From UHGV virus genome UHGV-0057186: DNA of 64,000 bases; one strand, 5' to 3'. Shown here piece by piece: positions 1,118 through 34,170 of the stretch (the first letter of the stretch is position 1; every line of letters begins with the position of its first letter). The translations under genes were made by a program, and so were the position numbers. Source of the DNA: a virus. The notes beneath the pieces were generated by a model, which did no database searches, had not been told where the DNA came from, and saw only the letters and a list, made by a program, of their open reading frames with translations.

Positions 1118-1489
1118 TTAGTCTTCTATGATATCTCTATCATATCCAAGTGAAATGAGAGTTTCTTTGAAGTGTTTAATGTTCTTTTGTCTAGAATCAT
1201 TGATGAAAATGACTGGATAACAAATGTTAAGAGATGTGAATCCAGCGCGTTTAGCAAGAGATACAATCAGTGGACGATCATACTCAATCTTACCATTATT
1301 TGTAAGAACTTTATAGAAAGTAAAAGGAGCATTAAGCTCCTTTAGAAGTTTTGTAACTGATTGACATCCAGGACAACGACCTACTTCATCTGGAATTCCA
1401 TAGACTTCAATCTTATTCTTTAAGTTCGAGTTTTGTTCCACGAGAAATAATTCCTTGATAAGCCCAGTATGGCGGGTTAACAGAATCAT
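1118..1489 (-). CDS. nrdH: glutaredoxin-like protein (NrdH-like redoxin)
   Basis: KIEVYG...CPGC...YPVIFIND thioredoxin-fold pattern; sits next to nrdG/nrdD as in T4; start uncertain (ATG 1489 or GTG 1441). Confidence 0.65.
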   Translation of the reverse strand: MILLTRHTGLIKELFLVEQNSNLKNKIEVYGIPDEVGRCPGCQSVTKLLKELNAPFTFYKVLTNNGKIEYDRPLIVSLAKRAGFTSLNICYPVIFINDSRQKNIKHFKETLISLGYDRDIIED

Positions 1490-1724
1490 CGCCAGAATTT
1501 TCTTCAGGAAAATAAACCTGGATAACAAATCCAGATGCATCAAAGGTAAAATAAACCGTAGGTAATTCACCTAACAATTCAGCGCGGTTATTAATTTCTT
1601 CAAGTTCTCGTTCTCGTCCAGCCCAAAAACTAGGATTTAGACTACATTCATAGAAATAATAGTCATTACCGAACATATCAAAACCCTTCCAACTCTCTAC
1701 CACATATCGCTCAAAACTAATCAT
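1413..1724 (-). CDS. hypothetical protein (103 aa)
   Basis: ORF in track; stop/start overlap with upstream gene (TAATTATG). Confidence 0.5.
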   Translation of the reverse strand: MISFERYVVESWKGFDMFGNDYYFYECSLNPSFWAGRERELEEINNRAELLGELPTVYFTFDASGFVIQVYFPEENSGDDSVNPPYWAYQGIISRGTKLELKE

Positions 1725-2528: not shown

Positions 2529-4342
2529 TGGTGCTTAACCCTATGCATGATTTCTTTATTTTTGCCGAGATTAAATCCGCGTTCGTTCGGATTTCCCAAA
2601 TAACCACATGTTCTTCTTATTGTGTTCATCTTTTTAGGATCAGTTTCTCCACAAATAGAACAAACAAATCCGTTTTCAGTAGGAGTCATTTCATGGGTAC
2701 TTCCACATGTAAAACATTTATCTACTGGCATATTAACACCAAAATAATCTAAATGTTGTGCAGCATAATCCCAGACAGCCTCAAGACCTTTTAGGTTATT
2801 TTTCATATCAGGAAGTTCAACATAAGAAATGTGACCACCTGTCGCAATGAAATGATATGGGGCTTCGCGAGAAATCTTTTCAAACGGAGTAATATTTTCT
2901 TCTACTGAAACATGGAAACTGTTAGTGTACCATCCTTTATCGGTAACATCTTTTACACTTCCATATTTTTCGGTATCAAGTTTACAGAAGCGATAACAAA
3001 GGTTTTCAGCAGGAGTCGAATACAAACTAAAAGCAAACCCAGTTCTTTCAGTCCACTGTTTAAGACGAGCATTCATTTTAGTCAAAATTTCTTGTCCAAT
3101 ATCACGACCGACAAGAATATTCAATTCATGAATACCAATGTATCCTAGGGACACTGAACTTCTACCGTTTTTAAATAACTCAATTATGTCGTCATCAGGT
3201 TTAAGACGAACCCCGAATGCACCTTCTTGGTAAAGAATAGGAGCAACAGTCGCTTTAACTCCTTTTAAGGAATTGATTCTACACATCAAAGCTTCAAAAC
3301 ACAGATCCATTCGTTCATTGAATAATTCAACAAATTTCTGTTCATTGAATTGTGTTCCAATATAAGAATCTAACGCGATGCGAGGAAGATTCAGTGTTAC
3401 AACACCAAGATTATTACGTCCATCAAGAATTTCATTACCAGTCGAATCTTTCCATACGCTCAAGAAACTACGGCAACCCATTGGAGAAACAGGAATAGAT
3501 GAACCAGTGATAGCTTTATTGTTCTTAGCTGAAATAATATCAGGATACATTCTTTTGCTTGCACACTCTAGAGCAAGCTGCTTAATATCATAGTTCGGAT
3601 CGTCTTTATAAAGATTAACACCTTCTTCAACGAACATAACAAGCTTAGGGAAAATAGGAGTTATTCCATCACGACCAAGACCTTTAATGCGGTTTTTAAG
3701 AATTGCCTTCTGAATCATTCGTTCAGTCCAGTCAGTTCCCGTACCAAATGTAATTGTCACAAAAGGCGTTTGTCCGTTTGAACTAAAGAGAGTATTTACT
3801 TCATATTCATAAGCTTGGAATGCGTCATAGACATCTTTTTCTGTCTTAGATTGAGCATAATTCAACGCATCAGCGATTTGCCATTTTTCTGCATCTTCAA
3901 CATGTTTTGCATAGGTGCGTTTAACATAAGGAGAAAGAACTTTATCGACATTCGCAAATGTAGTTCCGCCATACTGATGTGAAGCAACCTGTGCAGTAAT
4001 TTGTGCCATAATTGCAGTAGCAACGCCAATTGATTTAGGAGTTTCAATCTGCGCATTACCAAGCTTAAATCCGTTCTCAAGCATTCCTTTTAAATCTACT
4101 AAACAGCAATTAGTAAAAGGCAATGATATACTGTAATCTAAATCATGAAAATGAATTAATCCAACATTATGGGCATTTACAATATGACTTGGAAGAATAC
4201 GACAAGCGATATGTTTAGAAACAATACCGGCCATTAAATCTCTTTTTGTTGGAAAGACGCGAGAATCTTTGTTGGCGTTTTCTGTATTTAATTCTTTATC
4301 TTTATTTGAAATAAAATTTAAAACATCTTTTTCTAAAGACAT
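2525..4342 (-). CDS. nrdD: anaerobic ribonucleoside-triphosphate reductase (class III), intron-less
   Basis: 605 aa; C-terminal glycyl-radical motif RTCGYLG; zinc ribbon CFTCGS...CSICGE; continuous ORF with no intron. Confidence 0.95.
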   Translation of the reverse strand: MSLEKDVLNFISNKDKELNTENANKDSRVFPTKRDLMAGIVSKHIACRILPSHIVNAHNVGLIHFHDLDYSISLPFTNCCLVDLKGMLENGFKLGNAQIETPKSIGVATAIMAQITAQVASHQYGGTTFANVDKVLSPYVKRTYAKHVEDAEKWQIADALNYAQSKTEKDVYDAFQAYEYEVNTLFSSNGQTPFVTITFGTGTDWTERMIQKAILKNRIKGLGRDGITPIFPKLVMFVEEGVNLYKDDPNYDIKQLALECASKRMYPDIISAKNNKAITGSSIPVSPMGCRSFLSVWKDSTGNEILDGRNNLGVVTLNLPRIALDSYIGTQFNEQKFVELFNERMDLCFEALMCRINSLKGVKATVAPILYQEGAFGVRLKPDDDIIELFKNGRSSVSLGYIGIHELNILVGRDIGQEILTKMNARLKQWTERTGFAFSLYSTPAENLCYRFCKLDTEKYGSVKDVTDKGWYTNSFHVSVEENITPFEKISREAPYHFIATGGHISYVELPDMKNNLKGLEAVWDYAAQHLDYFGVNMPVDKCFTCGSTHEMTPTENGFVCSICGETDPKKMNTIRRTCGYLGNPNERGFNLGKNKEIMHRVKHQ

Positions 4343-6923: not shown

Positions 6924-7166
6924 TTATTCCTTAATTCCTAGTACTTGTTTAAAAGTCTCGTCGTAATCAAGACTTTGACCCGTTTGTTCTTTATGTTTGT
7001 ATATAATATCACTTACTTCTGATAGCATATTTTTGTATGAACGAGTTAAAGCAGATTTAAGCACGCTGTATCTATCAGGAAATTTACCATGTTCATTATA
7101 ATAAGCTATTGCTAATTCACGGACTGCCTTTTCGGCAGTCTCCATATATTCTTTACGCTTGGTCAT
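6924..7166 (-). CDS. hypothetical protein (80 aa)
   Basis: ORF in track; synteny with T4 nrdC.1 position. Confidence 0.55.
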
Positions 7167-31717: not shown

Positions 31718-31725
31718 TATTTATA
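31718..31725 (-). promoter_or_regulatory. late promoter (TATAAATA)
   Basis: minus-strand TATAAATA about 30 nt upstream of ATG of 31366..31689. Confidence 0.5.
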
Positions 31726-31727
31726 CC

Positions 31728-31754
31728 AAAAAGCCCCAACCTTTCGGCTGGGGC
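31728..31754 (-). terminator. intrinsic terminator closing the tRNA/stable-RNA transcription unit
   Basis: GCCCCAGCC-GAAA-GGTTGGGGC hairpin followed by TTTTT on minus strand. Confidence 0.55.
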
Positions 31755-31804
31755 TAAGCCTTGCGGCAACCTTGTCGGGGTTCCACCTGCTAAGGCAAGT
31801 GTTT

Positions 31805-31964
31805 GTACGAAACGCCGGGATTCGAACCCGGTTATTAAGTAGTTGACGCTACTCAATATTTTTAAAAGGCCATATCTCGACCATATCCGAACGTTCCGTC
31901 AAAAACGCTACTCGGCTTATGGCAAAGATATTTCCTCGAATCGATAATTCGGTGCGCCGTTTCT
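31805..31964 (-). ncRNA. candidate stable structured RNA (T4 species-1/2-like)
   Basis: ~160-nt non-coding stretch with tRNA-like T-arm CCGGG-TTCGAAT-CCCGG and terminal pairing GAAACG/CGTTTC; bounded by terminator; boundaries approximate. Confidence 0.3.
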
Positions 31965-32042
31965 GCTGTGATGTAAGAGGGCATCAATAAACGTAAAGAT
32001 TATTAACGCAATTCCTTACTCAGGGAACATCAGTCCGACGAC

Positions 32043-32597
32043 TTACCGGTAGCGACCCGGTTTCTCATTTGGTATTTCAAATTGTGTAGATTTAGTATCT
32101 AATTTTTTAACTATGGAACTTATGTCATGAAAGAAAAACCATTCGCCATTTATATGGTCCTGATTATAAATGCTGTGCATATATTTTTCAAGTTCTACTG
32201 CATCCTGGGAATATCTAAATGATACTATTTTAAAACTTTTAAACGGTGAAAATGTATTTGCTGTTATAACTCTAACATCAGGTTCTATACTTCTTCCTAT
32301 TTTATAATAATTAGGATTTGTAGTATCTACCATTATGTATACGAAAGCCTGTCGATAGCTTTTTTCTATATCAAATTCATCTTTAAATTTCAAAAGATTT
32401 AGGGCGGCAGTCCTACAAAATACTTTCCATTTTGACAAGCGTTTGGCTTCAGTCATAGAAAAGAATTTTTTCTTATCTGTTATTTTAAGAAAAGCAACAT
32501 TTTCAATTAGTTCTTGTGTTATTTCAAAATTACCACGGTATATTAATCCAGCTTTTATAGCCAAATTAATTTGGTCCCAGTCTACATCACTTCTCAT
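32043..32597 (-). CDS. T5orf172-type (GIY-YIG superfamily) domain protein
   Basis: C-terminal half FVYIMVDTTNPNYYKIGRS...R...E...H...EWFF fits the T5orf172 pattern; sits inside the tRNA/stable-RNA locus. Confidence 0.6.
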   Translation of the reverse strand: MRSDVDWDQINLAIKAGLIYRGNFEITQELIENVAFLKITDKKKFFSMTEAKRLSKWKVFCRTAALNLLKFKDEFDIEKSYRQAFVYIMVDTTNPNYYKIGRSIEPDVRVITANTFSPFKSFKIVSFRYSQDAVELEKYMHSIYNQDHINGEWFFFHDISSIVKKLDTKSTQFEIPNEKPGRYR

Positions 32598-32618
32598 AAT
32601 ATTATTCTCTCAATAATT

Positions 32619-32695
32619 TGGCCAGGGTGAAAGGATTCTAACCTTTAACCTGCGGTTTAGAGGACCGCTACTCTATACAATTGAGTTACACCCCG
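32619..32695 (-). tRNA. tRNA-Arg (anticodon UCU)
   Basis: manual cloverleaf: acceptor CGGGGUG/CACCCUG, anticodon stem GCGGU/ACCGC, loop CCUCUAA, T-arm AAAGG-UUAGAAU-CCUUU, CCA encoded. Confidence 0.7.
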
Positions 32696-32820
32696 TAATT
32701 AGTTCACAGCAATACCTACTCCAACAATCAAGATGTCTTCACACGAAATTAAGAGAAGAGTGATCAGTTTAACCCCTATAATCGCGTCAAGTGATATTAA
32801 TGTGACAACTGTCACAAGTT

Positions 32821-32895
32821 TGGCGGACGTGATAGGATTCGAACCTATAACAAATCGCTTAACAGGCGATCGCTCTGCCATTGAGCTACACATCC
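32821..32895 (-). tRNA. tRNA-Asn (anticodon GUU)
   Basis: manual cloverleaf: acceptor GGAUGUG/CACGUCC, anticodon loop CUGUUAA, T-arm AUAGG-UUCGAAU-CCUAU, CCA encoded. Confidence 0.7.
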
Positions 32896-32899
32896 AAAT

Positions 32900-32986
32900 T
32901 GGTGGGGAGTGATGGAGTCGAACCACCCGAGTCGCAATGACAATGGATTTACAGTCCACACCGCTACCTCTACGGGATAACTCCCC
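32900..32986 (-). tRNA. tRNA-Tyr (anticodon GUA), type II with long variable arm
   Basis: acceptor GGGGAGU/ACUCCCC, anticodon stem GUGGA/UCCAU loop CUGUAAA, T-arm GGUGG-UUCGACU-CCAUC, CCA encoded. Confidence 0.7.
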
Positions 32987-32995
32987 AAATTAATT

Positions 32996-33070
32996 TGGTG
33001 GCCCTGGGTGGAATTGAACCACCATCTGGCGATTATGAGTCGCTTGCTTGAACCTTCCAGCTACAGGGCC
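32996..33070 (-). tRNA. tRNA-Ile (anticodon CAU, presumably modified) or tRNA-Met
   Basis: acceptor GGCCCUG/CAGGGCC, anticodon loop CUCAUAA; corresponds to T4 tRNA-Ile position next to tRNA-Thr. Confidence 0.75.
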
Positions 33071-33654: not shown

Positions 33655-34170
33655 TTAAAGCAAATTAAACATTTTAACGGTCGGCAAAACAATTTCTTCT
33701 TCTATATAAGAGTATTTAACACTCTCAACTACACGCAAAAAATCATAATCATAATACTCAGAAGCATTACCTAAAATATTAATAAGTCCTTCAAGCACTT
33801 TATTACCATTCACAAAGAATAAGTCAAATACACGTTCTTCATCTTCTTCAGATTTATTACCAAGATCAACTTCTATGCGAAAGACCTTTTTAATGAATTC
33901 TGGATAAAGCTGGTCTGAGAACAGTCCTTCAACTAAGTATTCATAAATAAAAAGAGATTGCTCGCTGAACAAACCATTACCACAATAGCGCTCAATTTTA
34001 GTACTAGAATATCTGCTTTTAAACTTCTTTAAAAGATACTGAAATTGTAAGATTTCATGCTCTTCTACGCCAAACAGTGTTTTGGTTTTATAGTTGTCAC
34101 CATCATTTTCCCAGGTAGTGACATCAATTACGTAGCCCTGCGGAATTGTAGTACCTAAACAAATATTCAT
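33655..34170 (-). CDS. hypothetical protein (171 aa)
   Basis: ORF in track. Confidence 0.6.
   Translation of the reverse strand: MNICLGTTIPQGYVIDVTTWENDGDNYKTKTLFGVEEHEILQFQYLLKKFKSRYSSTKIERYCGNGLFSEQSLFIYEYLVEGLFSDQLYPEFIKKVFRIEVDLGNKSEEDEERVFDLFFVNGNKVLEGLINILGNASEYYDYDFLRVVESVKYSYIEEEIVLPTVKMFNLL

Follow-up and report, generated by a model that had tools for sequence, protein, structure and literature searches.

The literature counts genes with a T5orf172 domain, which forms one branch of the GIY-YIG superfamily, as a class of homing endonucleases in ICP1, in T5-like phages and in others (PMC10448857). One T5orf172 protein, Odn of ICP1, cuts DNA in vitro and requires a conserved Glu to do so (PMC8263062). 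The class as a whole is suspected and barely tested, and its founding member, T5 ORF172, was never characterised. Phage T4 itself carries no T5orf172 gene (Barth et al., PMC10448857); its nuclease SegB targets transfer RNA (tRNA) genes and drives inheritance of the T4 tRNA region (PMC2330249). Here we describe an open reading frame (ORF) at 32043..32597, minus strand, in a 64,000-nucleotide (nt) stretch of the virus genome UHGV-0057186 (the whole stretch is called the window). The source phage is a Tequatrovirus-type T4-like coliphage that shares 95-97% identity over 25 kilobases (kb) with numerous phages of E. coli, Shigella and Yersinia, so some T4 relatives do carry a T5orf172 gene, in the tRNA operon. 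In our judgement the ORF is probably a homing-type endonuclease gene from the T5orf172 branch, free-standing and travelling with its own tRNA-Arg(UCU).

The ORF resembles T5.069, the original ‘T5 ORF172’ of phage T5 (and ORF172c of BF23), in its two-domain architecture over the full length (29% identity, tblastn E about 7e-13, 172 vs 184 amino acids) and in the same conserved Y/K-G/R/E/E residues; the annotators of phage VR7 had recorded the BF23 ORF172c similarity. T5.069 also lies in a tRNA cluster, ~20 nt past tRNA-Cys and with its 3' end running into tRNA-Asn, which makes the founding ‘T5 ORF172’ itself a tRNA-cluster gene of this subfamily. It differs in having Cys and Asn rather than Arg as neighbours and in belonging to a T5-like siphovirus rather than a T4-like myovirus. 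The T5.069-like subfamily is small and resident in phage tRNA gene clusters.

T4 SegB is likewise encoded by a free-standing nuclease gene that sits in the same tRNA operon, flanks tRNA-Arg and is missing from close relatives; the SegB target is within DNA that encodes tRNA, and adjacent tRNA genes are replaced when segB homes (PMC2330249). A first description of the locus from its letters alone, the sequence-only reading, had given the ORF a seg-like position. This needs amending, as segB lies upstream of tRNA-Arg and the ORF downstream, between tRNA-Arg and rnaD, a neighbouring slot rather than the same one. The T4 order is tRNA-Ile, segB, tRNA-Arg, rnaD, rnaC, and RPN226 has the same arrangement with a segB homologue upstream of tRNA-Arg. 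The canonical GIY-YIG domain of SegB is N-terminal whereas the T5orf172 domain is C-terminal here, and activity is demonstrated for SegB and predicted for this ORF. The same reading took the ORF for a different superfamily member; the ORF family profile showed no detectable homology to T4 SegB with hhalign (probability 0.1).

The ICP1-type T5orf172 homing genes, Odn among them (Barth et al. 2021, 2023), share with the ORF the C-terminal Pfam nuclease domain, a sporadic distribution, a location at genetic-exchange boundaries and a modular build. They differ in that 87% have CapR, DUF723 or DUF4397 zinc-finger DNA-binding repeats (PMC10448857) and in clustering near terminase, ribonucleotide reductase and capsid genes, not in tRNA clusters. 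The ORF protein had no Pfam match to CapR, DUF723 or DUF4397, and its N-terminal half has an all-helical fold with a single Cys (C61).

The mobile unit at this locus is a two-gene module, a divergent tRNA-Arg plus the ORF, which the sequence-only reading overlooked. Its suggestion of a distinct selfish or marker-exclusion element is partly supported, the module being sporadic in distribution and transferred between genera. The module and its parts, with the evidence for each, are as follows.

32070..32704, minus strand: the module of ~635 base pairs (bp), consisting of the tRNA-Arg allele, a spacer and the ORF body (discrete blastn block with different flanks)
32619..32695, minus strand: the cassette tRNA-Arg(UCU) allele (ARAGORN; Rfam, 59.3 bits)
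32598..32618, minus strand: the 21-nt spacer between tRNA-Arg and ORF, with a GAGAG Shine-Dalgarno-like element (sequence; alignment of tRNA-Arg 3' flanks)
32043..32597, minus strand: the ORF, 184 amino acids, ATG start, T5.069-like T5orf172 family, PHROG 5032 (ORF list, Pfam, PHROG, substitution rates)
32355..32597, minus strand: the N-terminal four-helix domain, about residues 1-75/81, basic with an isoelectric point of 9.3, conserved helix motif W57..CRTAALNLLKFK (AlphaFold2 model)
32070..32354, minus strand: the C-terminal T5orf172/GIY-YIG-fold nuclease domain as predicted, residues 82-176 (Pfam, AlphaFold2 model, alignment)

The boundaries of the module are seen in comparisons with other genera. 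The blastn block against Gaprivervirus VR26 covers 32069-32703 at 94.8% identity; module identity is 93.7% for VR7 (93.7-95.2% over VR7 and VR26), 90.7% for Dhakavirus ESCO10 and 80.4% for Mosigvirus AV110 (32070-32704). In VR26, VR7, ESCO10 and AV110 the module comes after tRNA-Met and is followed by different downstream sequence. The flanking trna.3, trna.4 and ip genes of VR7 and VR26 are only 72-81% identical to the window, far below the module, which shows that the module has recently passed between genera. AV110 is an exception, as its module and flanking genes are both ~80% identical and the element is not more alike than its flanks. Phage JK1 provides the module-less state: both of its flanks match the window at ~99% identity, with homology stopping between about 32065 and 32073, depending on the blastn setting, and restarting at 32819. 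Where the window has 32066-32818, JK1 holds 82 bp with its own tRNA-Arg. The module ends at its 3' side with ...TTTGAAATACCA. We considered whether the ATACCA found there is a relic of a T4-type tRNA-Arg 3' end and rejected this, as it represents conserved Ile-Pro codons that are present in homologues with other flanks; it is at most a microhomology used in the rnaD junction.

The association of the ORF with tRNA-Arg extends beyond the coliphages. Genomic context was compiled from about 25 individually fetched loci. In 12 of 12 T4-like loci, drawn from seven named genera (Tequatrovirus, Mosigvirus, Gaprivervirus, Dhakavirus, Jiaodavirus, Winklervirus and Muldoonvirus) and a Logan contig without classification, a tRNA-Arg(UCU) precedes the ORF start by roughly 10-21 nt. 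The T5-like Epseptimavirus RN29 has a 40%-identical homologue directly upstream of a tRNA-Arg(UCU), overlapping its 5' end. Three separate comparisons of genomes with and without the ORF show that, where it is present, a different and linked allele has taken the place of the resident tRNA-Arg. Between JK1 and the window, the resident tRNA-Arg is swapped for the divergent ORF-linked allele. Among Klebsiella phages, Mineola has the order Arg-Leu-Thr and KpV477 the order Leu-Arg*-ORF-Thr, the asterisk marking a different tRNA-Arg. Finally, RN29 has 632 bp containing the ORF and a tRNA-Arg in place of the 94 bp that hold the tRNA-Arg of T5. The reversed gene order in the T5-like phage, together with the three separate replacements, argues that the association is real. 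We also asked whether the T5 stable RNA ‘rnaX’ is a decayed copy of the ORF; this was rejected, as RN29 keeps rnaX with the ORF and tRNA-Arg inserted beside it. What this analysis newly describes is the tRNA-Arg cargo, together with replacements that run in parallel in three groups of phages (coliphage T4-likes, Klebsiella T4-likes and T5-likes).

At least four distinct tRNA-Arg(UCU) alleles occur in T4-like phages (the T4/KpV477, JK1/Aplg8, RPN226/Mineola and window types), with a separate allele for each nuclease-gene context (segB-like or T5orf172). The T4 tRNA-Arg resembles the ORF-linked tRNA-Arg of Klebsiella and Serratia phages. The content of tRNA-His, tRNA-Ile and tRNA-Met is also variable in T4-like tRNA clusters.

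The ORF is scattered among close relatives. About 1050 phage records (~1050) share the tRNA region, 11 of them covering >=80% of it, and the E. coli/Shigella T4-like carriers of the ORF amount to 19 records from about 15 distinct phages. Of the 25 relatives that match best over 25 kb, REP3 alone carries it; in Klebsiella Jiaodavirus-type phages the figure is about 5 of ~146 records. Judged from these alignments, the locus shows two of the features by which homing genes are recognised: sporadic presence in near-identical genomes with clean plus and minus alleles, and horizontal spread in which the module is more identical than its flanks.

The cassette tRNA-Arg is ~60% identical to the resident alleles of JK1, Aplg8 and T4. 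Compared segment by segment, the window-, AV110- and RPN226-type alleles show compensatory changes in all four stems, so the cassette tRNA-Arg looks functional. These three types share the elbow pair U19:A56 instead of G19:C56. As a result of this elbow the T-loop DNA of the cassette allele, GGTTAGAATCC, breaks the SegB core motif GGTTCRANTCC, from which it is one base off. The cassette tRNA also has C33 (loop CCUCUAA) instead of the near-universal U33. Every ORF-adjacent tRNA-Arg in the fetched loci deviates at position 32 or 33, the loop being CCUCUAA in the coliphage carriers and GUUCUAA in the Klebsiella, Serratia and T5-like carriers, while all the ORF-less tRNA-Arg examined in the same phage groups have CUUCUAA.

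A similar arrangement is found with lysine. Lys-linked paralogues of the ORF in S114, IrisVonRoten and Aeromonas phage 44RR2.8t.2 adjoin a tRNA-Lys(UUU) with C33, positioned beside the T5orf172 ORFs as follows.

Locus L021, 1827-1904: C33 tRNA-Lys(UUU)
Locus L023, 1659-1736: C33 tRNA-Lys(UUU)
Locus L024 (44RR2.8t.2), 1672-1747: C33 tRNA-Lys(UUU)

The stem-loop GCGGA-CCTTTAA-TCCGT is identical in all three, and the 44RR tRNA body differs from that of S114 and IrisVonRoten, giving at least two bodies. T5 and Riker have a tRNA-Lys with U33 that does not adjoin such an ORF, and T5.069 and its Riker homologue adjoin tRNAs with the ordinary U33. The 44RR2.8t.2 ORF (...EGYVYVLTNPAWPGHFKIGST...GEWVDN...) is an unannotated T5orf172-family ORF at about 1140-1670 (+) of the locus, between tRNA-Tyr and tRNA-Lys, a site at which the record (KY290948.1) annotates tRNAs only.

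Exact-pattern scans of IMG/VR viral contigs showed how far these stem-loops extend beyond the ORF. The C33 tRNA-Arg stem-loop was found in 7 tRNA-bearing contigs (1 with the ORF, 6 without), the C33 tRNA-Lys stem-loop in 9 (5 with, 4 without) and the G32 tRNA-Arg in 4 (2 with, 2 without). One metagenomic phage tRNA array (L029 8400-13400) has about ten C33 tRNAs, and loci L036-L042 are likewise among those in which C33 tRNAs recur. The idea that C33 and G32 are immunity mutations exclusive to ORF-linked tRNAs was rejected, as the same variants occur in ORF-less contigs. The loop variants are thus a wider phage tRNA trait. Unusual anticodon loops have been proposed to evade anticodon nucleases (PMC10264068), and the C33 design may be related to such evasion.

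The protein itself was described well by the sequence-only reading. The 184-amino-acid product and the C-terminal motif it quoted match the translation exactly, which contains FVYIMVDTTNPNYYKIGRS...R109...E137...H141...GEWFFF. Its assignment to a T5orf172-type member of the GIY-YIG superfamily was confirmed: the comparison with the T5orf172 profile that it proposed was run with Pfam and was significant, with MUG113 (PF13455, E=2.6e-9, 38.0 bits against a curated cut-off of 22.3) and T5orf172 (PF10544, E=3.4e-6, 27.9 bits, cut-off 20) both passed, and all close homologues have the same MUG113/T5orf172 domains in precomputed annotation. PHROG 5032, a family of unknown function, matches the full ORF length (E=2.7e-59). 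An NCBIfam search of the protein gave no match. The protein had no significant match to defence or anti-defence families, PADLOC returning only weak matches to the nuclease domains of PDC-S57 and PD-Lambda-1. An exhaustive HMMER search recovered 2871 relatives at E<=0.001 and 27 at E<=1e-10.

An AlphaFold2 model built with 12 homologues (mean predicted local distance difference test score, pLDDT, 90.9) consists of an N-terminal four-helix domain, presumed to be a nucleic-acid-recognition domain, and a C-terminal beta-beta-alpha-beta-alpha domain, the order of elements of the GIY-YIG core fold that is predicted for this half. Foldseek of the model against the PDB and a sequence search of PDB chains were non-significant or empty. 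In a 31-member alignment that includes T5.069 and reaches down to 21% identity, Y87, K99, G101, R109, P118, E137 and E152 are invariant, and Y87, R109, E137 and E152 sit in the expected secondary-structure elements of the model. Conservation does not extend to the second Tyr (Y98), and for H141 it is limited to the close subfamily. None of the copies seen has a disrupted reading frame. Pairwise ratios of nonsynonymous to synonymous substitution rates (dN/dS) among coliphage copies are 0.11-0.14 (against VR7, ESCO10 and AV110), values that point to purifying selection and a maintained gene.

In the favoured reading, that of a homing gene with tRNA cargo, the transcript of the tRNA operon would include the ORF, which would have a ribosome-binding site of its own for translation. 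In a co-infecting relative without the module, the basic helical domain at the N-terminus would bring the C-terminal nuclease domain to the tRNA-Arg region. The resulting break would be repaired by recombination from the module-bearing genome, bringing in the ORF and the linked tRNA-Arg allele, with loss of the resident tRNA-Arg and, in some cases, of adjacent genes (tRNA-His or tRNA-Leu, for example). The phage would always keep an AGA-decoding tRNA, so the cost of carrying the element would be low. We infer that the protein is a nuclease, that its substrate is DNA, that the tRNA-Arg gene is its target and that inheritance is biased (marker exclusion). The module would then be a known kind of selfish element in a new place. 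If homing is true, the original T5orf172 subfamily would consist of tRNA-cluster homing nucleases, and the activity would help to explain the mosaic tRNA-Arg alleles and tRNA content, a matter of importance now that phage tRNAs are known to serve as cargo in counter-defence. Should homing not be borne out, the ORF is an accessory gene of the ordinary kind from a known domain family. The system is tidy and testable rather than surprising. It offers a compact and tractable E. coli case, with a 635-bp module, near-isogenic module-less partners (JK1) and an obvious candidate target in the resident tRNA-Arg gene, and the parallel Klebsiella T4-like and T5-like events allow cross-checks.

Several observations weigh against homing. 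Nuclease activity is putative throughout for the members of the T5.069-like subfamily. The canonical GIY-YIG model PF01541 itself fell below threshold (E=0.13, 13 bits, cut-off 22.6), and the counterpart of the I-TevI catalytic Glu has two candidates, E137 and E152. The N-terminal domain has no recognisable DNA-binding fold and is without the zinc-finger domains typical of 87% of surveyed T5orf172 homing genes. The linkage of ORF and tRNA-Arg in related loci is partly a matter of shared ancestry, so the 12 loci do not count as independent events. Because C33 and G32 are not exclusive to ORF-bearing genomes, they are not readable as nuclease-specific immunity mutations. Long-term synteny with tRNA-Arg and strong purifying selection would also fit a domesticated function that benefits the phage.

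Domestication is the alternative that survives best, and we judge it rather unlikely. The protein would then be a nuclease or DNA-binding factor directed against host DNA, satellites or competitors, or would serve in counter-defence together with the variant tRNA-Arg; the tRNA would be the selected cargo, and the ORF would act in the manner of SegB, amplifying and spreading anti-defence tRNAs. The dN/dS of ~0.12 is maintained over deep divergence and the synteny with tRNA-Arg is strict in 7 T4-like genera, both in line with such a role. There are precedents in ICP1 Odn, a domesticated T5orf172 nuclease (PMC8263062), and in SegB, which promotes tRNA-Tyr amplification and escape from Septu (PMC13096335). 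The loop of the linked tRNA-Arg (C33 or G32) is of the kind proposed for anticodon-nuclease evasion (PMC10264068), the occurrence of the C33 anticodon stem-loop in ORF-less phage contigs implies that the tRNA design has a value of its own, and the weak PADLOC matches to PDC-S57 and PD-Lambda-1 nuclease domains point the same way. However, the ORF is rare in close relatives (about 15 phages in ~1050 records, about 5 in ~146 for Klebsiella), which would be unusual for a generally beneficial gene; the pattern is the classical one of a homing gene, and the absence of a significant match to defence or anti-defence families also speaks against domestication.

A further proposal, which we think distinctly doubtful, is that the ORF and its tRNA form a nuclease/resistant-tRNA pair in phage competition. 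The rival tRNA-Arg(UCU) gene, or less likely the tRNA itself, would be destroyed at or near the segment encoding the anticodon loop, and the linked allele would be immune by virtue of C33 or G32 and, in the coliphages, U19:A56. If this were true, the small T5.069-like proteins would form a whole subfamily of homing nucleases specific for tRNA genes, each matched to its cognate resistant tRNA (Arg, Lys and others), and the modules would drive turnover of tRNA alleles in T4-like and T5-like phages.

It seems quite improbable that the ORF is inert or in decay and is simply carried along when a tRNA-Arg segment is exchanged, its presence and absence arising from ordinary recombination in a hypervariable region. 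T4-like tRNA clusters are indeed highly mosaic, as the alleles and variable tRNAs described above attest, and the C-terminal tail of the ORF is an accidental read-through into rnaD. Decay is nevertheless at odds with a frame that is intact in all copies seen, with the dN/dS of ~0.12 and with putative catalytic residues that are invariant down to 21% identity. Highly improbable, finally, is an RNA-level toxin/antidote-like pair, in which the protein would cut the anticodon loop of host or competitor tRNA-Arg(UCU) and the linked C33/G32 tRNA-Arg would be a resistant replacement that sustains translation: the deviation of every examined ORF-adjacent tRNA-Arg at 32 or 33 against CUUCUAA in ORF-less ones, the identical C33 stem-loop on differing tRNA-Lys(UUU) bodies beside Lys-linked paralogues in three phage groups, and an N-terminal domain without a recognisable DNA-binding fold would fit it, but to our knowledge all characterised GIY-YIG and T5orf172 nucleases act on DNA, C33/G32 tRNAs occur without the ORF (6/7 tRNA-Arg and 4/9 tRNA-Lys contigs, and the C33-rich array), and T5.069 and the Riker homologue adjoin U33 tRNAs.

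The immediate surroundings of the ORF bear out the sequence-only reading, which had put it directly after tRNA-Arg, inside the tRNA unit and before the stable RNAs. Ten tRNA genes lie on the minus strand at 33568-32619 (Gln, Leu, Gly, Pro, Ser, Thr, Met, Tyr, Asn, Arg), followed by the ORF, rnaD and rnaC. The ORF starts 21 nt past the CCA end of tRNA-Arg(UCU), a measured gap whose Klebsiella and Serratia versions are similar in sequence. The remaining features around the module are listed here.

32696..32820, minus strand: the 125-bp spacer between tRNA-Asn and tRNA-Arg, homologous to the Aplg8-type tRNA-Asn/tRNA-His spacer
32043..32069, minus strand: the read-through tail of the ORF, residues 177-184 (NEKPGRYR) and stop, encoded by the rnaD 5' end (junction alignment)
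about 31950-32068, minus strand: rnaD (97% identity to T4; coordinates carried over from T4, +/-1 nt)
about 31805-31943, minus strand: rnaC (97% identity to T4; coordinates carried over from T4, +/-1 nt)
31755-31732, minus strand: a terminator-like hairpin downstream of rnaC

The window is 95.7% identical at 32705-33000 to 2809-3108 of the Aplg8 locus, and the tRNA-His of Aplg8-type phages is lost from it. The 125-bp spacer (32696-32820, minus strand) has 95-96% identity to its Aplg8-type counterpart and also contains a perfect palindrome, TGTGACA-GT-TGTCACA, and a sigma-70-like element, TTGACG-17-TAAACT. On the other side of the module, the T4 rnaC/rnaD region is 97% identical to window 31723-32075, and the 33 nt at 32043-32075 are 100% identical to the T4 junction of the tRNA-Arg 3' end and rnaD. 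The final 26 nt of the ORF, stop codon included, thus fall within the 5' end of rnaD, and the homologues of AV110 and KpV477 end at ~177 amino acids. The slot downstream of the module is itself variable, AV110 having an additional 114-amino-acid ORF between the cassette and rnaD (1143-1487, minus strand, of its locus).

No T4 late promoter was found upstream of the ORF, and a MotA-box-like element lies at 33664, upstream of tRNA-Gln; on these grounds the simplest reading is that the tRNA operon transcript includes the ORF. Inside the ORF, at 32191-32163, minus strand, is the region's best sigma-70-like match (TTGAAA-17-TATAAT, 11/12), which lies ~95 nt upstream of rnaD and overlaps the conserved LEKYMHSIYN codons. 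It is found in the window, LF82-9 and VR7 copies and is absent from those of AV110, KpV477, X20 and SP1. Given this lack of conservation in the AV110, Klebsiella and Serratia copies, the site is probably incidental, a consequence of coding sequence rich in A and T.

In phage tRNA clusters, the ends of nuclease genes repeatedly fall within the next tRNA or stable RNA. T5 hegA, hegC and hegD are likewise nuclease genes interleaved with tRNAs, although they are HNH genes of an unrelated nuclease superfamily, and hegC and hegD extend at their 3' ends into the following tRNA, by 14 nt (4023-4036 of the T5 locus) and 23 nt (2398-2420), respectively. The overlap is 26 nt with rnaD for the present ORF (32043-32068), 24 nt with tRNA-Asn for T5.069 (T5 locus 7007-7030), 39 nt with tRNA-Arg for the RN29 ORF (2005-2043) and 10 nt with tRNA-Thr for the KpV477 ORF (3025-3034). 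When the downstream RNA is processed at its 5' end, the nuclease gene would lose its stop codon, and this could limit nuclease expression.

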